A stretch of 64,000 nt of DNA, taken from IMG/VR virus record IMGVR_UViG_3300014039_000024, positions 21,086 to 85,085 of that record; one strand, given 5' to 3'. Positions within the stretch are counted from its first letter, which is position 1; every line of letters starts with the position of its first letter. This document shows positions 1 through 26,821 of this stretch, one piece after another. Made by a program: the position numbers and the translations under genes. The DNA comes from a virus (lineage: Duplodnaviria > Caudoviricetes). Below the pieces are notes generated by a model that was given only the letters and a program-made list of their open reading frames with translations, made no database searches and was not told the DNA's origin.

Positions 1-1674
1 AGATTTATTAGCACTATAAAAAGTATTAATAGTATAATCTAAAGAAAATTCTCCAGAAGGAGTTTCATCATTTTCATTAGTTAAATCAATAACAATTTCT
101 TTATAAGTAGCATTTTCATTTTCAGTATCTTCAATACCAAAATTAAACATAGTATTCTTAATAGGAATCTGCCAAGTTACTTTTTGTGCTTCAACTAATT
201 TACTTATATCTCCGCCATTTTTACCGATTATACCATCTGTGATGGCATAAGTCTTAGAATCAAAATGTAGAGTTAATTTACGACTAATCTTTCCATCCGA
301 TCTATTCATTAAATAATTAGCCTAATTATAAATTAAATAATTACCATTAGTCTAATCTTCACAATAAATAGATAAAGCATTTAAACTATCAATGGTCGCA
401 TCATTAGGGACTTGCTTCTCATTATTAAAAGTAATTACATTACTTCTATAAACTTTTCCATTATATAAGATAATTACTTTGACTTGTTCTTGATTTTTAT
501 TAGAGCGCGGTTTTAGCTTATAATAAAAATTATTAGTATTATCTTCGATCGCAGTCCAATAGACACCAGAATATTCGTCCGCGGAAGGTGCCCCAAATTC
601 ATAGATATACCAACGGACTTCAAAAATATCATCCTTGGTATGCTCGGTTATTTGAACTCTATTACCATCTTCATCAAAATGAACCCACTTTAATCTAACA
701 GTTTTAGAATCAATCTAACCCTTATCATCAATTACATATGTACTTCCATCTAACGAATATACTCTTACATATTCATTCTCTATCTCATCAGCGGAAATAC
801 CTAATCCCATATAGATATCTTTTACAAAGATATTATTGGGTGGAACCGACATATTAAAATCATTAGCATAGCTAATTAAGCTATTATTACTATCTTTAAA
901 ATTACCTTTTTGATAAAGGAATATTTTTATATTATATATTTTTGCTACCGCACTTGTATCAACAACAATTTCTTGAGAATAATATCCTTCAAAATTATAG
1001 GGATTACCATACATATCATTAGTATCTAATTCAATAGATGCTATTAATGGAGCTCCATCTTTTTCAATATTTTTCCCTATTTCTTTAATATTTTCTGCGG
1101 TATCATCTTTAATACCATATATTTCTAGTCTTAATCCATAATTACCACTAACCACACCGAGCGTTTCAAGCCAGGCACGAAAATCGGCACGTAGGCCCAA
1201 CCGCGTAAACCCTTGCTATTCATCAGTGAAAGTAATTCCACCTTCAGGGGTAATCTCAATTTCTTCCTCATTACCATTAGCAAGGATACTCCAAACTTCT
1301 TTATTATTATCTCTGGTAACAAAAAAATTACCAGTTAAATCAATAAAAGTATTAAAAGGATTAACAAAATTATATGGCTTATCTTCATTTTTATCTGTCT
1401 TTTTACCAACAATGAATTTAGTGCTATTATAATCTCCTTTTGGAATCTATACATACACTTTATCATCCTTGTTGTAAGTGGTTATTTGGGAATAAGCATA
1501 AAATTCAGCGTAAGATTCATTTTTAACCTTATACTTACCGATAAGTTTATCTGTGTCATCAATAATAGTACATTCAATAGTGCTATCAAATTTAACTTTA
1601 TCAACACTTGAATTAGCGATAATACTCATTGCTTCACATAAACTTTCTTGAATATTTAATGCGTTATCAGCCAA
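1..1674 (-). CDS. Tail/baseplate-region structural protein, partial (runs off window edge); needs TAG read-through
   Basis: TTG start with AGGAGG RBS. The frame is open to base 1 except for 5 TAG codons and joins track ORFs 1447-1674 and 715-1200. It lies directly downstream of the tape measure gene. Confidence 0.7.
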
Positions 1675-1747
1675 AATAATCCCTCCTTTTACTCATTACT
1701 CTATAATTTTCTAAAAAATTAATTAGTTTTATTCAATATAATTACCC

Positions 1748-1784
1748 AAAAAGAAAAAGGGTGAAGCCCGTAGACCTCACCCTT
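1748..1784 (-). terminator. Intrinsic terminator after tape measure gene
   Basis: AAGGGTGA...TCACCCTT inverted repeat followed by a T tract on the minus strand. Confidence 0.7.
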
Positions 1785-1788
1785 AATT

Positions 1789-4700
1789 TTATTTTCTATT
1801 GGCATATTGAGAAGCTACATTAACTAATGTATTAAATGCTTCTTGAATTTCATATCTATCAGTTGCGTTCGGGAAATTAGCTTCAATTCTAACATTCTAT
1901 TCTAATGTTCCATCTTGAGAACTAACAGTAAATCCAGAAGATGAAAGAGTAGAAATTTGCTGACTATTAAAATCTAACTGTTTCGCAATCTATCTAACTA
2001 ATTGGATAGAAGCTAACATATTTTCAGTATCATCAGCATTAAGAACTAATTCTTTCTGATGCAAGAAAGCTAACTTACCATCGTCATTCCAAGTACCAGT
2101 ATAACCGCCACTTCTGAATCCGACCAATTGTCTCCAAACACTATCAGGTATATCTGGGAAATAATTGTATGTTTGACCATTGCGGGTAATCGGCAATGTT
2201 AAACCTTTACGATAGAAAGCGTCAACACGAGCATTGGTGGCAGTGCCAACATCATAACCACCATTAATCTTATCTTCACGATTCTGCATATATTTATAAT
2301 AATCGTCAGAGCCGTACTCTACACTACCCATATCTTTAGACCAATCGCTATCGCTACTAGAACCACTTCCATTACCAAATCCACTCTAAGCACGTAATGT
2401 TGCTTGAATAGAGTCTAAAAGTTCCTCATAAGCTTTAATGGTATCAAGTAATTGCTGACGGTGCTAAGCCCAAGCCTCAGTGGCGCTACGGACAGAACTT
2501 AACTCACTTTCAAGAGCAGGAATAACCTTATTAGATACTTCTTGATAAAGTTTGTCGCTTTCATCAGTAACATCCTTGACTTTCTACTGAGTATCGCTTA
2601 AATCATCACCAACTATGTCAGTAATCTCATCCATACTAGCTTGCCATTCTTTAAATGTATCATTAATGATATTAGTATTTTCAGTGATAGTATCTTTCCA
2701 ACTATCGCTATTCTCTTTAATAACATCAAAAGAGTTTACCCAAGCATCTTGAACAACTCTACTGTCTTCCTCTTGCGCTAAAGCATAAAGATTCCCAGCA
2801 GTAGTAATCAAATCAGTATATTGTTGAATTACTAAAGCACGCTCTTGCTGATACGTAGTTTCGCGGTAAACCGCGTCTTCTGCTGCCTTCTGATCGAGCT
2901 CTGCGAGCTTTTCAGCCAGTTCTTTCTCATATTGAAGTTTTTGCTGACCATATTTATTTGTCGCATTAAGACGAATATTATATAAATCATTTTCTGCACC
3001 TGCTAAATCTTGCTCCGCGTCATTTACTTTCTCTTGGTCTGCGGTATACACATAACCAAAATTACCCTCGTTATCGCGCTGTAATCTAACTGTAGATTTT
3101 GCGTTTTGAGCTTCCTCTAATGCGATTTGTGCTTCAAGCACTTTATATTTAGCCTAAGCAATCTCTAATTCTAACTGACTTAATTGGTCCTTATCCCTCA
3201 ACTATTCAATTTCTTTAGTAAATTGCTGGTATCTATTTTTAGCTGCTTGATTATTTGTCTTATCAATAGCCTAATTAACATTATTAAGCAGTTTATTCAT
3301 TTCGTAAATCTGATTAGTTTTTGTTAAATATTCATCTTGATAAGAAGACATTCTATCTAAAGCGTCGTTTAAAGCATCCCATCCAGAGATATTAAAATTA
3401 TCACCATTAATGGTTACTTTAGTAGAGCTTAGTTGTTTGTTCATTTCATCAGCAGCCTACTCCATTTTTGTAGTAAGAATCTCTTTTAACGCTTCGCCAT
3501 ATTCTTCAGCTTTAGAGAGCATGTCCTCTTCCGCTTCATCAAACGCGGCTAATATAGCATCATAATTCTTTTGAAGCACTTCACGTTCAGCATCATCGGT
3601 CGAATTAGCTAAGGCCGCTGCCGCCGCATCACGTTCACGCTTCAAACTCTCATACCATTGTTTAGAAGCATCAAAATTATTTTTCTTAGTCTAAGCAGTT
3701 CCATTCAAAACTGATAAAACTTTATCATAATCTTTGTCCTTACCTAATAAAGTAATAATAGAACGATAGTGGTCTAATACACTAGTTAAATGTTCCATAT
3801 GGTCTGTATATTTAGACAATTCATCATTTGCCAAATCTATAGTATTACCATAGTATTCAAGCATTTCTTTGTCTAAATCCTACAAAGCATTTAAATTATC
3901 TAATGTATTATCATATACATCCTATAAGCCTTCAATATAATTCTCTTGAGAAATTTCTCCATTAGAATAAGCATTATTTAACTAACCATAGAAATTCTCA
4001 TAAGTTCCTAATTGACTAATTACTGGATCAAATTGACCTTGTAAATATCCAAGAGCTTCAGCAGCTTTATAAATATTATCACTTAACTTATCGAAATAAT
4101 ATTCTAATTTCTTAGTATCATTTTCATCTAATTGAATCTTTACTTCAACTTCATAAGTAAGCATTTGATAATTTCTATCTTGCCACTCATTTATTTTATC
4201 TTGAATATCATCAGTTAATTCTTCAACTAAGTCTCTTGTGTCTTCATACTAACTAATAGCATCTTTTAACTCATCAATTTTCTCTTGAATCGGATCTAAA
4301 GTTGCTTCTTTATAAGCATCTTGCGCGTCTTTTGTAGAGAAGGAATTTGCTCTATCCTACGCGGCCGCGAGCTAATTATAAAGTTTAGTCATCTAATCAG
4401 TATAATTAGAAATATCACCATCTTCATCAAATGTAAAAGTGACTCCCGCTTTTTTCGCAGCTTGTTCTAAAGCCGCTTTATCTGTTTTTAAGTAAGCCTA
4501 TGCTTCTTTTTGCTTTTGCTTTAATAAATCAACTTCTTTTAAAATTAATTTATTGCCTTTAGCCATTGCATCAAGATGAGCTTTACCCCAAAGTCTATCA
4601 GCAGATTTATCTGCCCTATCCAAAGAACGAGTAACATCTTCAATGCTATCAGTTACTTCTTTATATCTGTCAACAATTTCAGACTTCTAAGTTTTATCAA

Positions 4701-7700
4701 TTTTAGAAGGTTTAGAAGAAGAACCTCCACTTGATTTGCTATTTCCTGAACCTCCAGAGTTAGTAGAAGAGTGATTATTTGAACTACCAGTAGCTTTCTT
4801 TCTTAGCCCTTTAATTTGAGGAGGAGTCTTTCCACCGCTAAAAGACACTAAACGCATACTACTATCAGCTTCAGTAGGCTCTTCAGCTTTCGTTTCTGTC
4901 TTTGTTGTAAAAGATGGCAGATTAATAGTATGTTTACCAAAAATTCCAAAATCAAAAGTTTTAGGATTATCAGATTTAATATCTACTACACGAGTTACTG
5001 TTTCAGCATTCGGCATTTCAGCAGAAGTATCAATATCCTCTGCATTATAAACTGGTTCGTAACCAATTCCAGCAAAATAAGCATTAGCTTCATCTGCTGT
5101 CATTTGAGAAGTCTAAACCAATTCATTAGCAGCTTTTAAGAAATCTTCATCTTTAACAGTAGCTCCAACTTCAATAGTTGGATCAATTTCAGAACAAGCA
5201 TCTTTGACTTTCTAGTCTAAAGCTTCTACCTAAGCTGTAAATTCTTCATCCTAGCCTAAAGTAATCTAAGTAATAATTTCTTCATCCATTGAACTCCTTA
5301 AAGAATCAATAGCTTTTTCATCGCCTTCAGCCGCATTAGCAATTTCATCTAAATGACTAGTGACAAAATCATCTGTAATGAAATCTTCCTCAACATCAAG
5401 GACATCAGATAAAGCAGAACGAGTCTTACTTAAAGCATTAAAATACTCTTGACTACCTTTTGAGCTCTTTTTTAAAACATCATTCCAAGTTTCAAAATTA
5501 TCAGATAAAGTTTCTATACCTTTATTCATTCGAGTAATCTAAACTGCTAAGCTGGCCGCCGCGTTAGCATCTTGAGAAACACTATCATCAAATTCATCAG
5601 AATTTTTAGATACTTCAAGAATATAAGAAGCATAATCTTTCATAGACTAAACCTCATCATCGCTTAATCCCATTTTTTCACCAGCATTAGTAAAGAAATC
5701 AGACATACTATCTAATTCACCAATAGCACTTAAATCTTTAAGCCCATCTTTAAATTTATCGACAGTCACTTTACCGTTGGCTAATTGTTCTACTAATCTT
5801 TGATAAGCATCGCTTTGTTTATCTATATATTTAATACTTTCACTAAAATTCTATAAATCTTCTTCAGAAGTACCATAAGCATTAACAATTTTATTAAAAT
5901 ATTCATTACCTAAGTCTGTATCATCAAAAGATTTTTGTAAACTTCTCTAAAAACTATCTAAATAATTTAATTGATCTGAATCTAAATTACTTAAATCTAC
6001 TCCATTTAAAGACTCTTGTAAAGTGTTCTATAAAACAGTAGTAAATTTTTCGGCTACTTCAGGAGAAGAATAAGCTTCAGCTAATTGACTATAAAATTGG
6101 TCTGCACTAACTTTTAATTCATCTCCATCAACATTCAAAACCATATTTCCTTTACGCTAAGCTACATAAGATACATCTTCATATCCTTGTTGCTTAAGTA
6201 ATTGTATATAATCTTGAATTTCTTGCTCATTACCACTATAATTTATATGTTTATTCCATTTAAAATTTTCCTATAACTTAGATTTCTAATCAGCTATAGT
6301 TTGAGCATAAATATCTTCTCCATTAAAAAGATCATTTATTTCATCAGCAGTTCTGTCACTTCCAAGAGCTGAAAATTCTGCTTCTAATAAATTATTATAT
6401 AATAATTTTCCCTATTCTTTTAAAGAAGAATTTTTAGTTATCTAATCTTTATTTTCCAGAATGGATTGATAAAATGCTTCAACTGTATCATCCTTAACAT
6501 TTTCAATACCAGCCCCCGTCGCATCTGCTATCGCATTTAATAATTCGCGAGCTCCTTCTTTAGTATAAATCATATTTCCAAAAGCAGGATTATCAGCAGC
6601 ATTTTGAATCATTTCACTTAAATTAGTTTTAGTAAGATCACTACCTCCTAACGTGGAAGCCGCAATTCCTAAACCAAAACTAGTATCTTTAAATGAGCTA
6701 TAACTATTTTCAATTTGCTAATTATTTAAAGCAATCTAATCCTTTATTTTTGTAGCGGTTGCAATTTTAAGACTCTCTTTTTGAGACTCTTCTAAATATT
6801 TTCGCCCTTCATCGCTAACATCCATAGCTCCATTTTCATCAGTAGTAATATATTTAGATAATTCAGGGTATTTTTCTAATAATTCAGTAATTTCAGCATT
6901 AACATCAGAAATGGCTTTATACCATTCAATAGTGCCAGGGACTAAATCTCCAATTGTATCTTTATAAGACTACAATTTTTCTAATGCTGAATTAGTTTCG
7001 TCAATACTATTGTTTAATTTATCAAAAGCTTCAGAACTCGCTTTCGCATTTTCTTCTAGCTTTTTTAATTTTGCTTCTGGAGTGCTTTCCTACATCTTTT
7101 TGAAACCAATAGCAATTAAAGCAATAACTCCAGCTAAAGCGGTAAAAGCTCCAACTGCTACAAGTGCAGTTGCAGCAAACATACTCATACCCGTCTTTGC
7201 TGCTACTAAAGCCGCTGTCTAAACTAATAAACTATTAGCAAATTTAGTTGAAGAAAAAGCTGCCTAAACCTATGCCAAAGTCATTTCTTTAGTAACAACT
7301 ACTTTTCCTTCAGTAGCTGCAGTATTGGCATTTATAGCAACAGTTTCAAGAAGTGTCTACATAGTTGCTTTTAACTAAGTAGCACTTTTCTTTACTTCAG
7401 CTTCTTTAAATTGATTAATAGCGGAAGTCAAAGAGACTAATGCCATACTCAAAGATACAGTAACAGATAACAATTTATCACCGATACTCATATCTTCATC
7501 CTATAAAGTATCAATCGCTCCCTTTAAGGACATTATCCCCATTGCAAAAGAAGAAATAGCAGTGAAACTCTAAGTAATAGATTTACCGAAATCATTAAGA
7601 GCACTTTCGTATCCACTGATCGCACTTTTAATTTCAACAAATTGATTACGTAATCCCTCATTTCCATTTTTAAGAATTTCAGATTTTTCTTTCACATCTA

Positions 7701-10032
7701 ATAGAGTATTACCTAAATCTTCTGCTCTATCATCAAACTCTTTGGCAGCTCTACCCGTTAAACCAAATCGTTCTTTTAATGCTTGAATCTGTGCCGCTGC
7801 TTCATAGGCAGTATCAGATAATAAGTCTTCAGCATTAAGATTTCCTAAATTATGTAGCTCTTCTTCGAGATCTTCTGCATTCATCATGCCATTCTCAAAC
7901 TAGAAAGCTAAAGTCCTTACCTAATCAGCAGTTTTTCCAAAATGAACTTGATCTAAAGCTTTAGCTAAATTTTCAAATTCATTATGAAGTTCAGTAGAAT
8001 TACTTTTTAAATTTCCAATTTTTTCATTAATAGTATTTAAAGCAGAAGCTCCTTGGCGGCCAGTTTCTATAATACTATCTAAGTCTTGTCTAGTTGAAGA
8101 ATAAGTGCTTAAATTACTTTCAATATCACCTGTAGAATTATTTCTTATAATTGATCTTAAACTACTATTATAATCTTGTAATTTTTCGACCGCCTGATCT
8201 TTTGACTAAGCCGCTTTAATAACCTATTCCCCATAGGCTTGATTAATCGCAAGTAAATTTTCTAACTATTGTCTTTCCTCCGCAGTTATATCGCCAGAAA
8301 TTTTTTGAATTTCTTTTTTCAATTCTAAGGTATATTTTAATTGTTCTCCAGAAACGGCATCTGCTTCAGTAACATTATCAAAAGCCATATTAGAAGCTCT
8401 AGTATAGACTTCTTCTTTCACCTATTCAGCAGAACGTTTAGTTAAACCTAGTAAGGACTATATACCAAAACCAACATTACTTAACCCCTGAGCAATTTGC
8501 TAATTAAAAACTCGTGTAAACACAACTCCAATAGCAGCAATTACTCCTGGTAAACCGCCCATACTTTCTATTAAATCATTTATTTTATCTAAGACGTCAG
8601 CCAATAAATCATTTAACGTGATAAAAAATTTATCATTAATTAATTCTGCATAAATTCCCTATGCTGCCGCTTTTACACGGTCTCTCGCGGCTTCCCAAGA
8701 TTCTGCATAAATATCTGCTTGTTCTTGGAGAGAACCATCTGCATTCTATGCTTTCTCAAGATTCTCTTTATAATAATCAAAATTATCCATCAAAGCAATT
8801 AATTGAGTATACTGACGAACACCAGCAACCTATTGCGCTAATGCCACTTGTTCTGCTTTACTAATAGTATCCCATTTAGATCCCATTTCTTCAAGCAAAT
8901 CATCCATATCCTTTAATTGCCCATTAGAATCTTTAATATTAATTCCAACTTTTTCAAGAGCTTGTGAATATTGATTTAATGTAGTGCCATCTTCAAGTGT
9001 CTCGCCAAGCTTTAAACCTTGAATACGAGCAAAAATAGTCTTTAAAGAAGTACCTACAACATCTTCGCTTTGACGTGTTGTAGCAGTAATGGTTGCCAAG
9101 GCAGCCGCTGCATTATCAAAACTTAAACCAATCGTATTGGCTACAGCTGCAAACTTTTCAAGACCACCAGCAATTTCATCAGTACTAGATGCGGTATCGG
9201 CGCCTAAACGCACCATTGCATCAGCATAATGCTCTAATGACTAGCTTCCGTCATAAAAATTATTCCAAACAGCAGTCATTTGATCTGAGACGATTTCAGC
9301 ACTTTCGCGCGCCACATTTGCCATTTTAATAGTAATATCAGTACGCTCTTTTACTTGCTCATCATCTAAACCCTATTGATAATAAATTAAAGCAGCATCA
9401 GTATACTCAGTAGTAGTTGTACTTAATGCCTTAGCTGCTGTATTTGCCTATTTAGCAAATTTAGCCATTTGGTCAACACTCTAACCAGTGACAATACGAA
9501 TATTGTTCAAAGATTCATTTAAATCTTCTGCATAGCGATAGGCGCTCGAAATTGCTCCAGTAAAACTGTGTAATGCACTAGAAGAAATTTGCCAGCGGGC
9601 AGTATTCTTCAAAACAGTCCACATTTCAGAGATTAAAGCACTTGTTCTCTTTAACGGGACGTCAGCTTCAACAATAGATTGAGCCAAGGACATAAAGGCC
9701 TTTTGTCCTTCTGGCCCCAATTCTATTAAATTATTCTATAATTTTTCTAAGCTTAAATTACTCTATTTCAAAGATTGAGAAAATTTAGTCAAATCCATTT
9801 TCCCAGTTTTTATATTTACAGTTTGAGATAAAATAGTCTATAACTTAGAAGCGGCTATTTGTGCTTCTGTCAATTCTTTTGTTATAGGTAATTTTTGAGT
9901 CTGTACTTCATTTATTGAAGATTTTAATAAATTATCTAACTGAAGCTATAAATCTTTAATTTGGTTCTATGCAGATTTAGAGTCAGCAGTAAATTGTAAA
10001 TTAACCTAATAACTATTTAATTGTTTAGCCAT
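1789..10032 (-). CDS. Tail tape measure protein, ~2747 aa, many in-frame TAG (Gln) codons
   Basis: ATG 10032 with GAAAGGAG RBS, TAA at 1789. All nine minus-strand track fragments (9481-9720, 8830-9216, 7570-7887, 5266-5529, 4687-5103, 3982-4164, 3457-3645, 2584-3141, 1990-2331) are in this one frame. TP901-type TMP segment (ADTASSTDEIAGGLEKFAAVA...TIFARI), coiled-coil body, C-terminal GGYTG...HQKELVLN motif. Confidence 0.92.
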
Positions 10033-10068
10033 AGAAATCTCCTTTCTCTCCAAGTTTTATCTTTATAT

Positions 10069-10109
10069 AAAAATAAAACGGGGATAAGAGCAATTATACT
10101 CTTATCCCC
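10069..10109 (-). terminator. Intrinsic terminator-like hairpin between the 10155-10688 gene and TMP
   Basis: GGGGATAAGAG-N8-CTCTTATCCCC, 11 bp perfect stem, followed by TTTTATTTT on minus. Confidence 0.7.
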
Positions 10110-10154
10110 ATCACTCTATTATTTTTCAAAAAATAATATTATTAACTAATTTAA

Positions 10155-10688
10155 TTAGCCCAATTTAGTAAGCACATCTTTCAATAGGGCCATATTATCT
10201 GGATCATTCAACTTCTTTTGAATATCTGTTGCATCCAAATCTAAATTACTATAATCCGCGGAAATTGCTTCCATAATACCCATCGCGGAATTACGATATG
10301 CTACAATATTATTAGCCATTTCATGAGTTGTTTTATTTAAATAATAAAACTCTCCGTCGGGCACAAGACCAATAATAAGATTAAGCACCTTAGAAGCATT
10401 AAGCATATCATAAAGTTTCATTGGATCTTCCTTCTGTTTTTCGGTAAACGAAATATTACTATAAGCATAGACAATCTCTAAACCGAGATTCATATCTAAC
10501 TTTAAAAGATTATAATATCCAGTATTTTCATCTACTGAATTATTTAATACACGAGTAATTAATTCACTCTTTTCTACAATGGGAAGATATTGCTTTACTT
10601 CAATAGTCTAATCATTATATTCAACAGTTTGAACTTTATTAAGTTCATCCTTAGTAATTCCTAATTTATTATATGAAATTTTAGCCAT
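10155..10688 (-). CDS. Hypothetical protein (possible tail assembly chaperone), 177 aa, one TAG at codon 27
   Basis: ATG with GGAGG RBS; read-through joins the N-terminus to track ORF 10155-10493; position just before TMP. Confidence 0.7.
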
Positions 10689-10715
10689 AACTAGCCTCCT
10701 TTTACTCTTTATTGT

Positions 10716-10744
10716 ATTATACAAAAAATTTTTTGTTCAGTCAA
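10716..10744 (-). promoter_or_regulatory. sigmaA-type promoter inside the morphogenesis region
   Basis: TTGACT-17 nt-TATAAT on minus, upstream of ATG 10688. Confidence 0.75.
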
Positions 10745-10749
10745 TTTTC

Positions 10750-11853: not shown

Positions 11854-11875
11854 AAATCCTCCTTTTCCACATAAC

Positions 11876-11912
11876 GAAAAAAATGGGAGAGAATATTTCT
11901 ATTCTCTCCCAT
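11876..11912 (-). terminator. Intrinsic terminator after tail tube operon segment
   Basis: ATGGGAGAGAATA-TTTC-TATTCTCTCCCAT, 13 bp stem plus T tract. Confidence 0.8.
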
Positions 11913-11915
11913 TAA

Positions 11916-12101: not shown

Positions 12102-12106
12102 ATTAA

Positions 12107-13129
12107 TTAACCTCCGATACCCGTTGAGGCTACAGCTTTATCAGCGGCAGTAGACATACGGATACCGTTGTCACTCTCTTCACTCTCTTCAATAATCTGG
12201 ATAGCAGCCAAAACCTTCTTACTATGATCGAAACGAGTATAATCAGGGAATGCGTCCATAGTAAATGTAAAGGTAGAAGGATCGCCAGAAGAGGCCATCG
12301 TGAAGTTGAAATTAGACTGAATCTTGCAGTTAGGAATAATAAATTCAGCAGGCATATCTACACCATTCTGATTGCGGAATAAGGTAGAAGCTTCAAGATA
12401 ATAGTTACCTCCAAACTTATCAGCAGTAATTTCAATCTGCTTAGCGCCCTTACCACGCTCAGTGTAATAATCAACCATTACTGAATCGCAAGCTGCATAA
12501 TCGGCTACTAAATCATTAGCCTTATAGCTACCTTCATTAATATCTTTATAACTATCACTACGAGCAAAACTTGGCTTAATAGTAACACTATAACTACCCT
12601 TAGTTGTACTTCCCGTATGAGCGATATAGGGTTCTGAAATAATATCGCCATCTTTTACGAAGAAAATATAAGCAAAATCTTCATCAACATTACTTTCTTC
12701 TAAATAAGGGGGATAACTAAGAGGAATAGTTAAACCATTAGTATCAATTTGCTTGTTGGAGTCAACCTTGCCAACAGTATCTTTATCAATAGTTTGAGTA
12801 ACATGTTGCTTAATCTTAACAGATTTTAAACCTTCCTCATCATTACCTTCAATAAGACCAGCACCGGAAAGAATCATGAAACCTTCAGGAGAAATAAGAG
12901 CATCTTCCATAGTGAAGGTAACAGTACGCTCGCCTTCCCATGCGACTAAGTTAGTATTACCACGACCGCCCTGTGCGTATACGGTGGTAGCAGCACCTTC
13001 CATACTGGAAGTCTTTAAAGTGTCGAAATAAATAACAGGCTCATTCTTATAGAACTGTTTATTACCGATCTTTTGGTTAGCCTTAGCCTTTAAAACGACA
13101 TCGCAAATTTCGCGTACACCAAATTTCAT
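12107..13129 (-). CDS. Major tail (tube) protein, 340 aa, no TAG
   Basis: AAGGAGG RBS; beta-rich tube-like sequence (ERTVTFTMEDAL; IIPNCKIQSNFNFTMASSGDPSTFTFTMDAF); position between neck genes and TMP; high-expression codon style. Confidence 0.75.
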   Translation of the reverse strand: MKFGVREICDVVLKAKANQKIGNKQFYKNEPVIYFDTLKTSSMEGAATTVYAQGGRGNTNLVAWEGERTVTFTMEDALISPEGFMILSGAGLIEGNDEEGLKSVKIKQHVTQTIDKDTVGKVDSNKQIDTNGLTIPLSYPPYLEESNVDEDFAYIFFVKDGDIISEPYIAHTGSTTKGSYSVTIKPSFARSDSYKDINEGSYKANDLVADYAACDSVMVDYYTERGKGAKQIEITADKFGGNYYLEASTLFRNQNGVDMPAEFIIPNCKIQSNFNFTMASSGDPSTFTFTMDAFPDYTRFDHSKKVLAAIQIIEESEESDNGIRMSTAADKAVASTGIGG

Positions 13130-15832: not shown

Positions 15833-16394
15833 ATCGACTCTTAAATACATCCCAATTAGATTCATACTCACCTTTATCATTTAAACGTCTACGTTTATAT
15901 AAACGCTACATATGGTGAGATTGTCTTTGACATTCACCTAATAAACTTAATAGTTTTGATAAGTGATTTGCCTAAGAAGTAAATTTAAAATCAGAGCCAC
16001 TATATTTCATTCGAGTATTCTCAATTGAAGTGACCTATCTTTGTGTCCAACCACACATCATTAAAATAGCCAGAATATTAATTTCTTCTTCAGTTAGGTC
16101 ACAATTAAAACTGGACCTATCAACTAAAACTTGAGGTTCTTCACCCGGTTCTGGAAGTTCTCCCCACACAGTTCCCACTATAAAATCATCGGGTGTAGCA
16201 TCTGATTCATTAATAGTAGCAACTTCTAAATTATAATCTAAAAGATTTTTTCGCGGAAATTCAAATCCCGGAATTGCGTCAATCATAAGATTTTGCAAAT
16301 CTCTCAAAGTATCTTCTGGAGTAAGTTCCAAATACATATCATCAGTAACCTTGTTTAGAAAGCGATTATAAACAGTTGAGAATAATGTTCCCAC
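15822..16394 (-). CDS. Putative head-tail adaptor, 190 aa, 3 TAG
   Basis: GTG start with GGAGG RBS; read-through extends track ORF 16035-16394; LTEEEINILAILM helical pattern typical of adaptors; gene order. Confidence 0.6.
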
Positions 16395-16413
16395 TTAATC
16401 GCCCTCCTATAAA

Positions 16414-17007
16414 TTATTTCTTGGAGGAAGTTTCCTCGGTTTTATTAATTACTTTATAGCCAGAACCGCTTGTGCGACGACCCTAAGTAACAGGTTCTTC
16501 CTTTACTACACGGCGTCTAGCAGTAGGCTCTTTCTCCACAATAGTATCTTCTTCTTTACTAGCGATATCATTAGCAATTGCCTTATCGACATCAAAACCA
16601 GTCTTTTCCTTTAAGGCTCTACGCTTATTAATATCAGTAATAGGAAGGCTAACAGACAAACTCTTAATTAAATCAATAATTCCAATAGGAGCAAAATCAA
16701 GAGCGTCAAGGAAAGCGTCTAATGAGCCATTAAGAATCAAATCAGCCACTTGCTGTTCTGACATATTATACTCAGGTTCAGTACGAACATTAAGAGTATG
16801 AGTTACTTCTGGCTCTAAAATCTGTAAAAAATTAGCAATTAATTCGCGGCCACCTGCCTGATAAGTCAACTTTTCTAACTCCCCGAAAGGAATGCGTTTA
16901 GTCTCGCCGGGAGCAAACTCACGACGCAAATTACTATCAGGAATGGTATAAACAACCACGCTAGTGCTTCTATTCTTTACATTATAAATATCTTCATTGT
17001 TAATCAT
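16414..17007 (-). CDS. Hypothetical protein downstream of capsid gene, 197 aa, 1 TAG near C-terminus
   Basis: AAGGAG RBS; track ORF 16483-17007 extended to TAA 16414. Confidence 0.7.
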
Positions 17008-17033
17008 TATTCAATTTCTCCTTTTACTCGTAA

Positions 17034-17076
17034 AAACAAAAATATGGGGAGAGGGAGTTTAATCCCTTCTCCCCAT
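17034..17076 (-). terminator. Intrinsic terminator after major capsid gene
   Basis: ATGGGGAGAGGGA...TCCCTTCTCCCCAT stem with downstream T tract on minus. Confidence 0.75.
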
Positions 17077-17094
17077 GGAATAATTTATATTAAA

Positions 17095-18201
17095 TTAGAC
17101 AGTACCATCAAGACGGCCATCGTAAGTGACAACCTTACCAGTGACACCATCATAATTCCAGGTATACATCTGACCAAGAAGTGAAGTATCAACATAAGCA
17201 CAGATGTTATTAGCAAGCATGCAAACTACGCCAACCTTCTTATAGACCTGGATCTCACGAGAACGATCATAATTATTGAACTCGTCAACAATAGTACCAC
17301 CCTCGAAAGCAATCTTCACAGGCTTACCATCAGCACCAGTAGGAATAACCCAAGCATAACCAGGATCAATAACCTTACGGGTATTGGTTTCATCCTCAAA
17401 GCCCTGCTCAAGAATAATAACCTTAGTGCCCTTATAAGTAGCAAGACGACCAGTATTCCAAAGCTCACTCTTCATGGCTTCAGTGTATCTCCAAGCCTCA
17501 TGAGGAATCATCTTAACAGCAAATTCATAAGTGCAATAAATGGTAGGAGTACCATAAGCAGAAGCGATAGTGATCAAACGATCCATAGCAGCTTCATCAA
17601 AACCAGCAGCCGCAACACGGTTAGCAGGAGGAAGCTGATTGATGGAAGACTTAAGAGCAGCAGCTACTTCCTTATAGATGAGTTCATCCATACCATCCAT
17701 GATAATCTTGGTTACTTCACCAAAATCAACACGACCATCAAGGAACTCTTCGAAGCCAATCTGAGCGGCTCCGCCGATAGCACTGGTACGAACCTCGAAG
17801 GCTTCATTCTCTTTAGGTCCAAGCTTGAAGACTTCATAAATACCAGCAAGACCGACACGAGTTACAAACTGCTTGGCACGAGCACGATTATTAAGAGGAC
17901 GACGGAAGATGGGCTTATCACCTTGAGCAAAAGTCTTAACCTCAGCAAATTGATCATATTGCTGAATAACTTTCTTAGGAAGAACCTCATCGAGAGTCTG
18001 CTCAATCATAGAGAAAATAAGGTTCTTATTTTCACGATAAAGAGCATAAGTTCCAGCTAATTCATTCATCTCGTTACGAAGAGTCTCATTAAGATCTTCA
18101 TAACTAAGATTCTTACCATTATAACTATAAGCGGTAGGAGCAGAAGGATCAGCCTTAGCAACTTGCTTCATAAGAGCAACTAAATTATTTTTATCTAACA
18201 T
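17095..18201 (-). CDS. Major capsid protein, 368 aa, no TAG
   Basis: Size, position after scaffold and head protein, strongly biased high-expression codons, HK97-like pattern (QFAEVKTFAQGDKPIF; GGAAQIGFEEFLDG). Confidence 0.8.
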   Translation of the reverse strand: MLDKNNLVALMKQVAKADPSAPTAYSYNGKNLSYEDLNETLRNEMNELAGTYALYRENKNLIFSMIEQTLDEVLPKKVIQQYDQFAEVKTFAQGDKPIFRRPLNNRARAKQFVTRVGLAGIYEVFKLGPKENEAFEVRTSAIGGAAQIGFEEFLDGRVDFGEVTKIIMDGMDELIYKEVAAALKSSINQLPPANRVAAAGFDEAAMDRLITIASAYGTPTIYCTYEFAVKMIPHEAWRYTEAMKSELWNTGRLATYKGTKVIILEQGFEDETNTRKVIDPGYAWVIPTGADGKPVKIAFEGGTIVDEFNNYDRSREIQVYKKVGVVCMLANNICAYVDTSLLGQMYTWNYDGVTGKVVTYDGRLDGTV

Positions 18202-18218
18202 TATCCTTTTCTCCTTTC

Positions 18219-19136
18219 TTACTTAATACGCATTACTTTGACGCCCTTTTGGCCATCAGGCATGGTGTAAACCTTAACAACCTGCCAGGTCATGGAATCG
18301 TCACCGGACTTACTAAGAATACCCTTGGTAGCTTCAGAAGGAGAAAGCTTATCTCCAACAGCAAGAGTCTCTTCATTCACCATATTTGTAGTATAGAGAT
18401 CACCAACCATGGTCTTGAATACACGAGGAACCATAGAAGTGCCAGTCTCCATAAACTTCTCATGATAGATACCTAACTTATGATATGGATCATTAGTCCA
18501 ATTCATTTCATATATATCAGGAACATCAGTGAGAACCTTATCATAATAATACTTTACAGGAACATTGGCAACCTGATGATTTTCATCAAGGGTATAATCA
18601 TTACCATCATAAGTGAACTTACCATTCTCGTCAACATCATAAACGCGACCAGCAATAGTAACAGTCTTCAATCCCTGATCCGCGGAAACAGTTTGATTGA
18701 TTAACTTATAAGTATTACCCTTTTCATCAACGCCATTCCAGAAACGACCACCATACTCGACCTCAGTGTGCTCCCAGTCATATGGGCTATAAACACGAGC
18801 CTGATAGTCATCCTTGATCATAGCAAACTCGCAATCCCACTGCTTAGTGCCATCAAGATGATCGCGGTAAAGCTTAATTTCATTATAAACGAGCATCCAC
18901 TCGCCTTCGCCAGTGAAGTTGACTTCGCCAATGCCATTATCATTAGCAGCATAGTCATACTTTACGAACTGACCATTTTCAAGAATCTCAATGTCTTTAT
19001 TGGCAGGAAGTTGAGCATAGATTTGAGCGTTTCTCTGAGCGGAAAGGTGATTAGGCTCGACCTGACCGTAACCAAACTCAACATACTTTGCCTGAGACTT
19101 AATAGGAAGATTCTTATTCAAAAAGTCTTTAAACAT
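18219..19136 (-). CDS. Putative capsid decoration/head structural protein, 305 aa, no TAG
   Basis: Between scaffold and MCP; YGQVEPNHLSAQ N-terminus and VVKVYTMPDGQKGVKVM C-terminus; high-expression codons. Confidence 0.6.
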   Translation of the reverse strand: MFKDFLNKNLPIKSQAKYVEFGYGQVEPNHLSAQRNAQIYAQLPANKDIEILENGQFVKYDYAANDNGIGEVNFTGEGEWMLVYNEIKLYRDHLDGTKQWDCEFAMIKDDYQARVYSPYDWEHTEVEYGGRFWNGVDEKGNTYKLINQTVSADQGLKTVTIAGRVYDVDENGKFTYDGNDYTLDENHQVANVPVKYYYDKVLTDVPDIYEMNWTNDPYHKLGIYHEKFMETGTSMVPRVFKTMVGDLYTTNMVNEETLAVGDKLSPSEATKGILSKSGDDSMTWQVVKVYTMPDGQKGVKVMRIK

Positions 19137-19150
19137 TTAGTATGTCCTCC

Positions 19151-20068
19151 TTATTGATTTTTATTGGCGGTAGCAAAAGCCGCCTTCACCCAAGCGGGCA
19201 TATCATCATCCTCTGAATTACCATTGTCATTCAGATTAAAAGTAGTAGCTCCATTGGGCTTACTATTTTCGTCAAGGTCGAAACTCACCTTGTTGCGAAC
19301 ACAAATAACAGATAATTTAGCTTCAATGTCATCAAGAGAATACTTATCAATATTCTGAACAACATCAGCCTTATCTTCATCAGAAAGCATATAGAATTTA
19401 GCAATCATATCTTCTTTATCTTTCTTCTCTGCGGCATTTTTAAATTCGACAAGTGGAGCAAGTTGCTCTTTCAAGCCATTATTTTCAGTTTCAAGAGCCG
19501 CAAACTTAGTCTGTAATTCATCATACTGAGCTTTAAGCTCGGTATACTCGACAATATCTTCAAGAGAATAATTCTTCTTTTTCTTCTTATCATCATCATT
19601 CTCACCATTGTCGCCTTCGCCAGACTTCTTAGAGGGATCACCATTATTTTCAGGATCCTTCTTATTACCATCACCCTCTGATTTATTATCAGTATCGGGA
19701 TCATTTGATTTATTATTTTTGCCCTCTTCCTCAGCCTTTTTCTTTGAAGCATAATCAGTCTCAAAAGCTTCAACATCAGCGAGAGCAAACTGAGGCTCTG
19801 CTGCAGGAGTATAAGACTTAGTTACTTCAATTAAAGTATCGGAAGGAACAAAACCATTTATGTCTGTAAGAGAAAAGTCCATGCGATAATACTTTTGATC
19901 TTGTCTACTTTGAAGAATAGCAAACTTTTGTCCACCGTCTTCATAAACGCCTTCAATGCGATAAATAGAACAATAACTATCAGGTCCACTAGGATACTTA
20001 TTCTCAATATAAGACCAGAGAGAATTCCACAAACCATCGCCAATTTCAACAGTATACTGTGTAAACAC
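19151..20068 (-). CDS. Nested in-frame scaffold protein (internal GTG start), 305 aa, no TAG
   Basis: AAGGAGG lies 7 nt upstream of an in-frame GTG at 20068 (MFTQYTVEIG...). Confidence 0.55.
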   Translation of the reverse strand: MFTQYTVEIGDGLWNSLWSYIENKYPSGPDSYCSIYRIEGVYEDGGQKFAILQSRQDQKYYRMDFSLTDINGFVPSDTLIEVTKSYTPAAEPQFALADVEAFETDYASKKKAEEEGKNNKSNDPDTDNKSEGDGNKKDPENNGDPSKKSGEGDNGENDDDKKKKKNYSLEDIVEYTELKAQYDELQTKFAALETENNGLKEQLAPLVEFKNAAEKKDKEDMIAKFYMLSDEDKADVVQNIDKYSLDDIEAKLSVICVRNKVSFDLDENSKPNGATTFNLNDNGNSEDDDMPAWVKAAFATANKNQ

Positions 20069-20746
20069 TTTGGTTCCTCCTTCTTTTATTAATTCTTTAA
20101 GCTCATTCATCATGGAGAACAAAGTGTTCTTAAAACCATCATCGAATGAAAAATTCATATTGATTTGGGAGCCTTCAAAACAAGGTTCATTTTCTTCTCC
20201 CAAAATACAAAGTTTAGAAATAATTGCCTCATTTATAATAAAAAACTAAGGTTTTCCATTACTATCTTTTGCCCACGTCGCATTTAATGTTTTTTCATCA
20301 AGCTCCATAGATTGATTATTACCCTAAGTAACAACACGACCGCACTCAGGATATTGGCCAGTCCACAAATAACCCTCAGTCATTAAATACTCACGTTCGA
20401 CAACACCATCATCCAAAAACTTCTAAAACCAAACTTTAGCCCCAAGATCAACAAAACCATAAGGACGAGTAGTATCTTTCATCTTAAACTCGCCATTAGA
20501 TAATTCAATGACCCTATTATGCTCTTCAAAGTCGCCAGTGCCCTCATTGAAGAAACCAACAATAGGGCTACCTGGAAGACTATTAGCCATTTGAGTTGCA
20601 ACATCTTTAGTAATTACACTCTTATTGCGATTAGGTTTATCATCAACGTAGCAAACCTTAATCTAACATTTAGAAATTAAAGGATTTACAGGAGTTATAT
20701 TTATAAACTCACAAGGTGTATTTAATTTAATACTTGTATGTTTCAT
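19151..20746 (-). CDS. Prohead protease-scaffold protein, 531 aa; 4 TAG, all in the N-terminal protease-like domain
   Basis: ATG 20746 with AGGAGG RBS. N-terminal PNRN...PIVG...QSMEL...LCILG pattern; C-terminal acidic coiled-coil scaffold. Extends track ORF 19151-20203. Confidence 0.75.
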
Positions 20747-20755
20747 AAATCCTCC

Positions 20756-22402
20756 TTACTTCATTGCTTCTTTGTTTTGAATAGTTTTTTCACTTTTCTA
20801 ATCATCAGGTTTCTCTGGACGACCTGCTTCACCACTTGATGCTTTAGCAGTTCCAGAACCTGAACTTCCTGAATTATTTTGAGTTTTATTGTTAGAAGAT
20901 GAACCTTTTAAACCCAAAATATCTTCACTACCCATAGTAGAACTCATAAGAGGAGGAATCATAATTTCACTCAAATGTAAAATCTCATTTTCAAAATGAG
21001 CTGCATTAAGAATGAAACTCTATGAATGTCCAAGAGCAACTTGAGATAATAGCTTTGATTGTCCCATTTGAGCTTGCTCTTTATACATCTTAGAAAGTGT
21101 CTAATAATTATTTTGAGTAGTCTCTAATAAATAAAATCTAAAATTATATTTTTTATTACTACTCTTCTTTTCAATAATTCTATTAAAGAATATATTAAAC
21201 TATAAAATTAAACTTCTTATTGTAGATTCATCATTTAAAACAGATTTTTCCAAAGCCATATTACCATCTGTATTAAATAAGTTTTGTGAGATACCCAATG
21301 AATTATAAACACTACGCTCTACTTTTGCCAAATCATCTGTAGTTGTTGTAGTATTTTTATCAGACATATCAATAGAATCTACATCAGTAAATGTAGTTAA
21401 AACATCTACTCCAATAGCTCTCTATAACATCTAAACTGCGTTATTATGAATATCTCTGGCTTCATCAACATCAAATATCAAATCACCATTCTTATCCATT
21501 GGGAGCTTTTGAACTAAAATTTTAAGTAATTTCTACATCTATTTCTTGCGGTCAAGGTCTTGAGCGGCATCCAAATCCATAATAGTTGGAATAGAATTTA
21601 CAAAAATAGGAATATCACTATTATTAATATTAAACTTAACGCAATTCTCGGGCTCAAGAACATACCAACTACCAGTATGCTGACAGCCAACCGCTTCTTC
21701 TAAAGCAAGTTTTCCTTGCTTATATAAAACATAACCTTTCGCGAATTCTTCAGGGAATAATTTTAATACCTTTAAACGATAATTCATATCTCTAAAAGTA
21801 TCGAAAAACCGCATATCGAATTCAACTACTGGTGTATTATTTACACTGTATCGTGTTCTACAATATCTAACCGGCAATTCTTGTAAAATTAAATTCTTTT
21901 CTGAAGGAACTATATATCCATAATAGCATCCATTTTTAACAACCTGCAAAGCGATATCTCCGCAAATCTTTTTAATATAACTATTATCAAAATAATTAAG
22001 CATCTTATAAAAGTCTTTTAAAACTTTTTCTTCCTTCACGCTATCATCATAAGTCTCCGCTGCGATATACCAATCATAACGATACAAGAAAGCAACATAA
22101 TTACAAACACGTTGATATACACCACTTATATCATAATAAAAATTAGAAATATATCTTAAAGCATTTAAATCTCTTTCAGCCAATGCTCGAAGCACATCTG
22201 GTTTCGTAATAACGCGGTTTTGGCCCGGATATCTAATTTTACCATAATCACCAAGTTTTAAGACTGCATCATCTAAAGTTTTTGTACCGACCTTTATTTT
22301 TCTGCTGGTATAATCGGTATCATAATAGCCATAATCATAACGCCCATTATAAATATCAAAACCTTTAGCATGAATCTAATCATTACGATCTTGCGTATCC
22401 AA
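20756..22402 (-). CDS. Portal protein, 548 aa, 9 TAG
   Basis: TTG start with AAGGAGG RBS; extends track ORF 21539-22195 both ways; located between terminase and protease; low-complexity tail ending GRPEKPDD. Confidence 0.8.
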
Positions 22403-22415
22403 AGTTCCACCTCCT

Positions 22416-22772
22416 TTAATAACCTGCTAATTTCATTATATAATCATAAGAAATAAGGTTTTCATCGGTATATGGAATCTCTATTAATCTAAAATCATGT
22501 AAAGCACAAAAACGTCTTTTTTGATTATCATTATATTGCTATTGGTATAAACCGCGTTTTCCACCAAATTTAGAACTGGCTTCATAATGCTATTTTCCCT
22601 AATATTCAATAATGAAATCAATTTTTCCATCATCATCAAATATAACAAAATCAAAACGAAGAGGACGCCCATTTGGACTTTTTAAATCTGGGAAAATGTA
22701 TTCCATTTTAAAAGGCAGTCCCGCTTCTTCTAGGATTTCTTCAATTTTGATTTCTCCTCTTGAAGCACGCAT
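22416..22772 (-). CDS. PD-(D/E)XK endonuclease of DUF559/Vsr-like type, 118 aa, 3 TAG (absent from ORF track)
   Basis: GGAGG RBS; LRFDF...IIEY*GK*HY matches the family motif IEYQGxQHY when TAG is Gln. Confidence 0.75.
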
Positions 22773-22784
22773 TTACTAACCTCC

Positions 22785-24524
22785 TTAATTTAAAAAGCAC
22801 CAATCAGACGCATTAAACTTCTTACGCTTTTTCTTTTTATCTTCTTCAAGTTTTAAATAATATAATCCATATTCAAAAGCCGAAAATTTATCTTTACGAA
22901 TTCCGCGATTTGCTTGTTTCAGTATAATATTAATACCTTCATTTTCTTCGCGTAAATTCATCATTTCTTCTTTTAATATGGAAGTTAATGTAAATGGTTT
23001 TAAATATTCTGCCCTTTCCTCGGGAGTCATCTTTTGACCCTTTTGAGTTGCTAATAGTTTTTCTTTAGCGGTTCTTTCATCAATTAGGAATTTCACCTTA
23101 CCCGCTTGCAATTGAGTTTGTGCATTAGCATGACACTCAGTATTTATTGGGGCATTAGCTTTAATAACATACATAGCATCAAACTAAGTATTTGGTGTAC
23201 GATATTTTTTATAATATCCTTCATCATCATTCTCAACGCCAAAATCAGGTAAAAACTCACCATCTTCATCATTTTGAGATTTTACCATATAATCCAAAAG
23301 TCCAATGCCTAAACCATTACCATCTATAACTAATGTTCTTGCTTTATATTTATAAAATAATTTCTTTAATTTAATTGCCTAATCTTCAAAATGATCGTCC
23401 GCCATAGTATACATATTAACTAATGATTTAATAGCCGGACCTTGAGCTTGTGGGGTTACTTTAAACACACAAACTACAGTATCGCATCCTTTACGACCTA
23501 CATCTACAGAAAGCACATAATATGCTTGAGCTCCTGCGCGTCCAGATGCTTCATATTCAGGCTAAAGTAATTTTCTATTTCTATCAAAATGTTCTCCATT
23601 AAAGAAAGCATCTTCAACCGTTCCAGACCACTTAGATTCATATTCACGCTCAAATGAAGCTTCATTATAAGTTCCTTCATTCTTCTGGTCTGTAATAAAT
23701 GTTTTACTTTGTAATCCTACTGCTACTGGTGTTCGCCATGTTCCGCCTAATACCATACAACGGTCAGGCTAAGTTACCATACGAACTAAGAAACCAATAA
23801 GTCTATCATAAGGAAATGTGCCCTTATAACCAGCAGTAGTAATATAGATCTGTGATTTATTTAATGGTTCCTTCTCATTGGTAGTACCATCTTTTGCTCT
23901 ACGTGAAATTGCCATAACAGGAATAATAACTTCACGAAGAATAGCATCGTCAATACCAACGCACTCTTCCATCAGACCGCCATGACGACGCTGACCACGA
24001 GTACTTTCACGAGCTGCGAGGTTATCAAGGACTGAACCATTTTTAAACACATATCTAACTTTATCTTTTCCTTCAAGAGTTTTTCCTCGACTCCAATCGA
24101 TTTCTCGATTAAAACTAGGAATAAGTTCGCATATTTCTTGAACTTTATCATGAAGGATACTAGCACCTTGTTCTTTACCTCCAGAAGTAACAAACAAGTG
24201 TGCTCCAGGATATAAAATACATCTAATCATTAACGCCATAACTGACAAAAATGATTTAGAATAAGCACGAGGGAAAACTGCGTAAACATACTAATAACGC
24301 ATAACAGAACGAAGAAATACTCTCTAATAAAAATAGAAATTAAATTCTCCATCTTTTATTTCTGTACGTCTTCCTCGCACCATAAAATCTACAAATAAAT
24401 CAGGATATTCTCTCCAAAAGGCAACGTATTTGCGGATAATGGGCATTACCGCTTCTACTCGTTCAGGTGATAGACCTATTTTTCTACGACTATCACTTAA
24501 TTCTAATAAATCTTGTAATGCCAT
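22785..24524 (-). CDS. terL: Terminase large subunit, 579 aa, 6 TAG
   Basis: Joins four in-frame track fragments; Walker A-like PRAYSKS, Walker B GGLMEE, nuclease motifs YVLSVDVGR, VIDGNGLG and KDKFSAFEYG. Confidence 0.88.
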
Positions 24525-25717
24525 TATTTATCCAAACTCTATAAGAACTCATTATCTTGTGCGGATTCCTATTCTTTAAAATCCTCAAAATCCGCATAAT
24601 CACTATCTTTAATAGTTCTTTCGAGTTCTTCAATACTTAAATCAGCATCATCAACAATATCACTTTCCGCGTTCTTTGCCTTTTCTTCATCTTCTTTAGC
24701 ATTTTCGCGTAAAGCTTTTTCTACCATTGTGCTGATATTAGTTTCATCTTCAATAAGAGTACGAGTATAACGTTGCATATCTTGAATAGTCAAATCAACT
24801 TTATCATGTGGCTATTCAACATAATATCTTTCAATATATCCTTCTTTTTCACATAATTCAATCAGCTCACCGATTGAATCAACAAATTCGCCAGATTCCG
24901 CTTTATTTTGGGCCGCGGTGAATTTACCGGACTTCATTAAACTATCATAAACTTTGCTCATCTTCTGGAAGCCTTCAATATCGCCAATGTCGATCAATTG
25001 ATTCGCCTTTAAAGATGTTTTACATATTAACTTTAATGTATCTTTATGCCCGGCTCCTTGAATATCATAAGAAGCCATCATTTCTTCATATAACTATTCA
25101 AGTTTAACCCATTCTTCAGGTTTATAAGTTTTACCCCACTTTAATCTTAAATAAGTGCGGTCTTCATCACTTAAATCTAAATCCTATTCAACTTCACCAC
25201 TTTGCTAAGCGAAATAATCTTCTGTAGAAGCATTAGGCGGTGGTGGAGCAGTATAAATAGGCTCTTTTAATTCGCCCTCCGGAATAATAGTTGAATTCTT
25301 TTCAATAGCAGTAGCAATCTATTGAGCATCATACCCTTGACGTTTCATAGTTTGCTCTAATTTATTGTTTGCCATCTATTGTAAGAATTCAGTATCTTTC
25401 CAACGATAATCTTTAAACTATTTGAGTTTCATTTTTGACAAATAACGTCCAAGGATTGTCATACCAGTAACATTCTGTGGATCGCGGGCATATTTTTCCA
25501 TTAATTTATTCCATTCATCAGGAACATAAGGGACATCCGCTTCTTGTAAAATCCACAAATAAGTATCTGGATTCCAATTATCAACGTGCATTGTCATACA
25601 TTTTTTACACACAGGGAATTTACCATCATTAGGATATTTTTCTAAATTATTAGATGAGTAAAATTCTGTGCCATTCATTGTGCGATTACATTTTTCGCAA
25701 TAATACGTATCAGCCAT
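24524..25717 (-). CDS. Zn-finger protein upstream of TerL (candidate terminase small subunit), 397 aa, 9 TAG
   Basis: ATG 25717; CEKC...CKKC N-terminus; joins track ORFs 25418-25738, 24812-25081 and 24569-24793; TAATG coupling to terL. Confidence 0.65.
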
Positions 25718-25765
25718 AAATAAAAATTCTCCTTTCAATTATTTATTATAAACAAAAGGACAACT

Positions 25766-26821
25766 TTAAGATTTTTTGGCCTTAGAATTTCGACAACTTT
25801 TACAAATACTATAAAAGCCATCTTTACTTGTTTTATTTTTACTAAAATATTTATTATGTGCTAATTTTATTTTACCACAACGACTGCATTTTTTATATTT
25901 ACCTTTTTCGATATTTAAATAATAATCATCTAAATATTCGTCTTCCGCAGTCGAAGCAATTAATTTTGGAATTTTATTACGCCATAAACTTGAAATATAT
26001 TCAAGGCTATGTTTAATACCAAATTCCATTTGTATTTTCTCTTGAATGTCAATATTCTATAAACCATCAATTTTATATTCAACGATTCTATCATAAAGGG
26101 GGTAATTTGCTAAAGCTTTATCACAAAGTTTATCAAAATCTTCCATTAAATACCATAAATCTTTATCATATTCTCCCCAGCTATCTTGTTTTAAGCGAGA
26201 ATAATTGCATAAAACCGCAGAACATATTTCAGGTCTTAATAAACTAATTCCATCTGGAATAGGATATCCTTCATCATCAAAAATAAAAGTTTTATCATCT
26301 AAAGGAATATAAGACTTAGATCTGGTTAATTTTGTAGGCGTTATTGGGCGACGATAAGCATTTTTAATAACATACTAATCTTTTCGCATTTCAATAAGAG
26401 CCTTTTTAATAACAAAAGCATCTTTACCTTCTGTTACTTTTAATTTAGCCTCCCAAACACTAATGGCTTCTCTTAACTAATTTAAACTTGGTATTTCTTC
26501 TAAATCTTTTTTTGTAATTGTAATATGTGGTTGAAAAATTGTATTTCTATTATCTGTAATTAAATTATAAATTCCATCTTCGCCATTTTCTAGTTGGGAA
26601 ACAAGACCTTCAAAAGAAGTTTCACGTTTATTAACTGTAGCCATACGATTATCAGTTAATAGTTTTTTCTCCTTTTTTTCTTGTTTCTCCATACAAAGAA
26701 CCAAATAGTCTGCTAAAATTTCTAAATACTTTTCAGGCGGATCTGGATTATCAGCCAAAATTTGTTCGACTAATTGATTTCTTTCTTCTGGAGTTTGTAA
26801 AGAATAATCAAGTTTTATCAT
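25766..26821 (-). CDS. Putative transcription regulator (HTH-like segment plus C-terminal CxxC...CxxC Zn ribbon), 351 aa, 3 TAG
   Basis: GGAGG RBS; joins track ORFs 26477-26821 and 25766-26029; first gene of the morphogenesis strand. Confidence 0.6.

Follow-up and report, generated by a model that had tools for sequence, protein, structure and literature searches.

Reassignment of the amber codon TAG to glutamine (code 15) is known from gut phages, in which late genes are recoded, a suppressor tRNA reads the codon and early genes stay compatible with the standard code (bioRxiv 10.1101/2021.08.26.457843; discussed also in PMC10879173). Use of this code by crAss-like phages was shown by metaproteomics (PMC9523058), and TAG to Gln recoding has likewise been published for the phage phAss-1 (OQ749652), together with its tRNA-Sup-CTA genes (PMC10607447). 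Here, we analyzed a window of 64,000 nucleotides, i.e., bases 21086-85085 of the 85,085-bp IMG/VR virus record IMGVR_UViG_3300014039_000024, whose minus-strand late genes carry numerous in-frame TAG codons. We consider it highly probable that the window belongs to a siphovirus-like gut phage of ~195 kb that employs code 15 with TAG as glutamine, encodes a suppressor tRNA with a CUA anticodon (tRNA-CUA) in the part of its genome missing from the record, and uses the code switch as a timer.

The nearest published phage is phAss-1, which NCBI files under "Caudoviricetes code 15 clade". Phages of the phAss-1/Phassvirus group resemble the one studied here in being siphovirus-like phages of the human gut that read TAG as glutamine in the large terminase subunit (TerL), portal, tape-measure and other late genes. 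Shared features of phAss-1 are moreover a very long tape-measure gene and a large tRNA array that includes tRNA-Sup-CTA but is not accompanied by a dedicated synthetase. Its tRNA-Sup-CTA genes include homologues of the tRNA-CUAs of our clade in either size class, long (88-90 nt) and short (72-74 nt). However, the portal proteins share only 39.5% identity, the genome sizes differ (133-138 kb, with ~136 kb for phAss-1, versus ~195 kb), and the Phassvirus group holds two or three tRNA-CUAs per genome compared to one in the complete relatives of our record. Within Phassvirus, nucleotide identities between members amount to about 80-86% (PMC10607447). Neither similarity at the nucleotide level across the genome nor synteny with phAss-1 is seen here, and a megablast search with 9.9 kb of the head and packaging region yielded no match among GenBank phage records. 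Judging from the missing nucleotide match, the portal identity and the genome size, the phage represents a separate, distantly related lineage outside Phassvirus.

The clades described by Borges et al. (Lak, crAss-like, Jade, Sapphire, Agate, Garnet, Amethyst and Topaz; bioRxiv 10.1101/2021.08.26.457843) show the same arrangement of standard-compatible early genes, recoded structural and lysis genes and a suppressor tRNA, and also mix recoded and standard-code phages within one clade. A release factor or synthetase gene was reported for two Jade phages, whereas none was found in the recoded relatives of our phage. The crAss-like phages also read TAG as glutamine, which is proven there by peptides (PMC9523058); they belong to another phage order and infect another host phylum. 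Portal relatives of our lineage infect Firmicutes.

In-frame TAG in the late genes

The late arm comprises virion and packaging genes on the minus strand at genome positions 1111-47906, including window positions 1-26821, with ~20 kb of recoded sequence left of the window edge up to genome 1111. It holds 27 genes, 19 of which lie inside the window and adjoin one another. Across their 15,275 codons, the 27 genes contain 213 in-frame TAG but not a single TAA or TGA, as compared to 1,759 TAA, 1,307 TGA and 726 TAG in the two other frames. Due to this asymmetry, neither chance nor decay explains the late arm. The initial annotation, made from the letters of the window, had stated that every break in the minus-strand structural genes is a TAG and that no gene ends in one. 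Both observations hold, as none of 104 open reading frames (ORFs) is terminated by TAG.

It had further proposed to compare the coding density under translation tables 15 and 11. With TAG as sense, ORFs of at least 100 amino acids cover 86% of the record, up from 50% under table 11. In a greedy gene set for the late arm, table 11 gives 79 fragments covering 59%, 65 of which end in TAG, while reading TAG as sense gives 27 genes covering 95%, terminated by TAA (24 genes) or TGA (three genes). The resulting genes abut and are mostly preceded by ribosome-binding sites, much as anticipated: a Shine-Dalgarno motif was found at 21 of the 27 starts and intergenic gaps mostly range from -59 to +27 nt. 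Reading TAA as sense yields an ORF coverage of 0.857, which is a poor control because spurious ORFs open in this AT-rich genome; the counts of in-frame and off-frame stops were therefore used. Thus, TAG is a sense codon in the late genes, and gene continuity and coverage in the late arm are recovered only by reading through it.

The 79 fragments obtained with table 11 would also be expected if TAG were a real stop and the late arm a decayed, pseudogenised or mis-sequenced remnant. Such a remnant should, however, have collected TAA, TGA and frameshifts as well, none of which occurs in the 15,275 codons. Furthermore, the TAG-bearing late genes are conserved across dozens of independent contigs, some of which are complete genomes with terminal repeats. 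Because of the stop-codon asymmetry and this conservation, the remnant explanation is refuted, and we assign it practically no probability.

Essential, conserved genes are broken by in-frame TAG only and become full-length upon read-through. The most extreme case is the gene of the tail tape-measure protein (1789-10032, minus strand; 2,747 amino acids; phrog_4211 and PF10145 PhageMin_Tail), whose frame runs from an ATG at 10032 with AAAGGAG upstream to a TAA at 1789 and contains 66 TAG, i.e., 2.4 per 100 codons. The annotated frame was correct, but the nine fragments counted for it are in fact 67 under table 11, owing to the 66 in-frame TAG. On the same strand, the portal gene (20756-22402; 548 amino acids) carries nine TAG and matches phrog_2739 over residues 76-545 (E 1e-82), the TerL gene (22785-24524; 579 amino acids; phrog_2) carries six, and an HNH/homing-endonuclease-like gene between them (22416-22772) carries three. 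For the portal, TerL, HNH-like, tape-measure and DUF6291 (see below) proteins, the PHROG or Pfam matches run across the TAG sites of the read-through product, and PHROG families cover the portal, TerL and tape-measure products from end to end. PHROG confirmed the labels terminase, portal and HNH-like nuclease, whereas "protease" and "neck" found no support in any family search. The read-through terminase also matches two families listed as "unknown function", namely phrog_15503 (residues 11-210) and phrog_24618 (residues 354-578). At least these two families resemble the N- and C-terminal parts of a terminase that was split when recoded phages were annotated with table 11.

Glutamine at TAG positions and the tRNA complement

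To determine which amino acid TAG encodes, we searched IMG/VR with the portal protein and obtained 80 loci with 53-95% portal identity, in which each window codon was mapped to its aligned codon. Over all loci, Gln codons make up 37-41% of the cells in TAG columns and TAG itself 16-32%, followed by Glu and Lys, and this residue profile matches that of the window's CAA columns. The alignments were also remade with X in place of TAG, and substitution frequencies derived from them served for a likelihood comparison over 62 columns, in which Gln came first, 75 log-likelihood units ahead of Glu. Twenty of the loci have zero in-frame TAG across up to ~4,700 aligned codons and are therefore standard-code users. 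In these, Gln accounts for 61% at the window's TAG columns, compared to 58% at its CAA/CAG columns, and occupies 28 of 30 well-conserved TAG columns. Of 51 positions at which TAG is exchanged in relatives of at least 88% identity, 48 have CAA or CAG as the partner codon.

The four sites quoted earlier as glutamine positions were confirmed at 22584-22610 (IEY*GK*HY, nuclease), 24309-24332 (FY*RVFLR, terminase), 45682-45705 (PIEE*MKI) and 45448-45474 (ST*ISEELG). Standard-code relatives have Gln at both nuclease sites (20/20 each) and at the terminase site (19/19), in line with the residue proposed. Taken together, the alignments show, at the level of sequence, that TAG means glutamine. It accounts for 213 of 648 inferred Gln codons of the late arm, i.e., about one third.

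The record itself is a genome fragment. It is collinear with positions 104469-194063 of a relative, G002 (86% nucleotide identity, 88% coverage), which has 194,412 bp, terminal repeats and a CheckV completeness of 100%. The ends of the record map inside complete genomes, and it represents ~44% of a ~195-kb genome (complete relatives: 194-198 kb). G002 encodes 27 tRNAs on the early-gene strand as judged by ARAGORN, with a tRNA-CUA at 21135-21207 (L094:2290-2362). Counted across the terminal-repeat junction, this position is ~21.5 kb to the right of the window. Among complete relatives, the tRNA set tracks the code state. The four recoded genomes (G001, G002 and G003 with 95% and G005 with 68% portal identity) each carry one tRNA-CUA beside a tRNA-Tyr and no tRNA-Gln(UUG/CUG), whereas the five standard-code genomes (G006-G010) each carry two tRNA-Gln and no tRNA-CUA. 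ARAGORN also reports a tRNA with the anticodon UUA ("Stop(tta)") in the standard-code relative G009 (L132/L133), and, within a G002 ORF (22486-22565), a "SeC(tca)" tRNA that Rfam does not list among its tRNA matches and that may be a false positive.

The tRNA-CUAs occur in a short form of 73-74 nt and a long form of 90 nt, both of which adopt a cloverleaf and have a G discriminator base; they contain a GG D-loop and a TTCGA T-loop. Within conserved flanks and at 95% portal identity, the gene measures 73 nt in G002 but 90 nt, including a long variable region, in G001 (L111:681-770). This suggests gene replacement at a single locus. No HDV-like or theta ribozyme was detected around the tRNA-CUAs of the relatives (Rfam, E <= 0.01).

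The properties of these tRNAs also bear on the question of whether TAG might encode pyrrolysine, Tyr, Ser, Trp or Glu. ARAGORN labels the CUA tRNAs as "Pyl", the 90-nt type has a long variable region like Ser, Leu and Tyr tRNAs and adjoins tRNA-Tyr, and crude similarity singles out no tRNA-Gln. However, the "Pyl" label reflects the anticodon alone and the molecules are ordinary cloverleaves, while recoded genomes with a tRNA-CUA have no tRNA-Gln. Moreover, Gln leads all alternatives by 75 log-likelihood units or more, the codons with which TAG swaps are CAA/CAG rather than TAY, TCN or TGG, and TAG columns show no enrichment of Tyr, Ser or Trp. A residue other than Gln is thus extremely improbable.

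A phage-borne suppressor has to be weighed against one that comes from the host or a co-infecting element, in which case TAG would still be sense. Consistent with such an outside source, no tRNA was found in the 85-kb record by ARAGORN and Rfam, even though the window was also scanned sensitively at E <= 0.5, and some recoded relatives of phAss-1 have no detectable suppressor tRNA (PMC10607447). The former result agrees with the initial annotation, which saw no tRNA-CUA in the window, and is explained by the record being a fragment. Rfam returned no other RNA family in the whole record either, and a scan for the anticodon-loop pattern YTCTAR gave fewer matches than expected by chance. Each of the four recoded genomes that are complete encodes a tRNA-CUA of its own, located in the part that is missing here, and early genes avoid TAG completely, as would suit a host in which TAG still signals termination. 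We therefore hold a host or co-infection origin to be very unlikely. The expectation of a CUA suppressor elsewhere in the genome is thereby supported indirectly, whereas its suggested alternative, a release factor or synthetase modifier, is not: neither PF00472 (release factor) nor PF00749 (Glu/Gln-tRNA-synthetase) gave a match above cut-off in the four complete recoded relatives.

Apart from the missing tRNA, several points weigh against a phage-encoded, glutamine-charged suppressor. While tRNA-CUA is present in the relatives, its occurrence in this phage is extrapolated from genomes at 86% nucleotide identity and would place the gene in the missing part. Furthermore, the nine complete relatives constitute only a few independent lineages, and a comparison of tRNA-CUA with 237 phage tRNAs, made to assign its isotype, gave best nearest-neighbour identities of 0.75-0.79, which is noise level. 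Finally, no release factor or synthetase gene was found in the complete recoded relatives to explain the efficient reading of 66 TAG in one gene against the host's release factor 1 (RF1).

With the phage-encoded suppressor as the preferred explanation, the infection would proceed as follows. The plus-strand early genes would be translated by the unmodified host ribosome, which can read them because they are TAG-free. Early transcription, as deduced from the complete collinear relatives, would run past the right end of the window into a tRNA array with one CUA tRNA and no normal tRNA-Gln. This tRNA would presumably be charged by the host's Gln pathway, and its build-up would out-compete host RF1. 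TAG in the packaging, head and tail genes would then be read as Gln, with only TAA or TGA terminating, and the late proteins would be made. The code switch would in this way serve as a post-transcriptional timer.

Distribution of TAG among gene classes

TAG is partitioned between gene classes. The early genes (27018-64000, plus strand) comprise 77 ORFs that are readable under either code, 60 of them ending in TAA and 17 in TGA. In-frame TAG do not occur downstream of their likely starts; the few found in larger early ORFs by the longest-ORF rule all lie upstream of a better start. In G002, the plus-strand genes just past the window's end already hold TAG at low density, and the strictly TAG-free block therefore corresponds to the immediate-early region. 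Moreover, TAG is not limited to the late arm, since a low-GC minus-strand island (44857-45825) within the early region contains a TAG-bearing gene. This DUF6291/HTH gene (45373-45825, minus strand) has four in-frame TAG, and its match to PF19808 (54 bits, cut-off 27.2) spans two of them. A doubtful 105-amino acid ORF in the same island (44857-45174, minus strand) has three TAG.

Within the late arm, three minus-strand genes at 12107-13129, 17095-18201 and 18219-19136 are free of TAG (0 of 35 Gln codons versus ~35% elsewhere; Fisher p = 6e-7) and a fourth at 16414-17007 has a single one. The four genes are TAG-free in 87-95% of the relatives, with 95% for 12107-13129 and 87% for 17095-18201. 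The GC content at third codon positions is 0.21 in TAG-rich late genes, where CAA far exceeds CAG, 0.32 in TAG-poor late genes, where CAG exceeds CAA, and 0.35-0.47 in early genes. The capsid gene (17095-18201) and the three other TAG-free or TAG-poor late genes are presumed high-copy virion genes that prefer G-ending codons.

The product of 17095-18201 models as a major capsid protein of the HK97 fold (mean pLDDT 66.7), and Foldseek assigns the predicted structure a probability of 1.0 to phage capsid proteins and encapsulins. The gene at 18219-19136 sits in the scaffold position, flanked by the capsid gene and the portal-proximal head gene. The product of 12107-13129, a virion structural protein by phrog_2729 in whose gene CAG exceeds CAA, gave too poor a structure model to be used (mean pLDDT 48.8), and profile searches against the Protein Data Bank returned no match; its identity as putative major tail protein follows from its position alone.

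Per 100 codons, TAG amounts to zero in the capsid, scaffold-position and putative major tail genes, ~1-1.6 in terminase and portal and, as given above, 2.4 in the tape measure, so that the density is graded inversely to the number of copies of each protein that a virion requires; this gradation is kept among the recoded relatives. We tentatively consider, at less than even odds, that TAG is more than an on/off timer and that incomplete suppression serves as a translational rheostat for virion stoichiometry.

The first gene of the late arm (25766-26821, minus strand; three TAG) is sigma-factor-like according to PHROG only (phrog_5767, E 1e-53); Pfam gave no match for its product, which has an HNH/Lar-like zinc-finger region at its C-terminal end. 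If this gene drives late transcription, the code switch would gate late transcription, too.

The base composition splits sharply along the window, with 40-46% GC and positive GC skew in the early block (28000-44000), as opposed to strongly negative skew and 29-35% GC in the late arm (1-26000), where GC climbs to 38-39% at the capsid genes. Between 38950 and 41580, recurring promoter-like units (TTGACA ... TATAAT/TACAAT) are each followed by a shared leader, ATAATGTCA(A/G)GAGG, and 80-200 nt with no obvious ORF; these units have no Rfam match. A T-loop-like stretch, GGTTCAAATCC, at 41250 was ruled out as part of a tRNA, as it comes without cloverleaf, CUA loop or Rfam match.

Code state within the lineage

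An unrooted FastTree tree, which gives no direction of change, was calculated from the alignment columns of portal, TerL and capsid after masking of TAG. The window falls with full support into a recoded clade of 18 rows, and at least two changes of code state are needed. Each standard-code clade adjoins a lineage of low TAG density. The low-TAG relatives L030-L034 (0.4-0.7 TAG per 100 codons) are found next to the two standard-code clades and may represent intermediate stages in the gain or loss of recoding. The code state appears to flip within the clade along with a swap of tRNA-Gln and tRNA-CUA.

This kind of recoding is already known, and the lineage, at ~195 kb, is an addition to the TAG to Gln phages that leaves the known mechanism unchanged. 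For annotation, it means that table 11 shatters the late arm of this phage and of many IMG/VR relatives into ~80 meaningless fragments. The lineage brings its own internal controls, i.e., standard-code and recoded relatives at 56-63% portal identity with complementary tRNA-Gln and tRNA-CUA sets. It is therefore a good system for studying how a code is gained and lost and how RF1 is defeated at a gene with 66 TAG.

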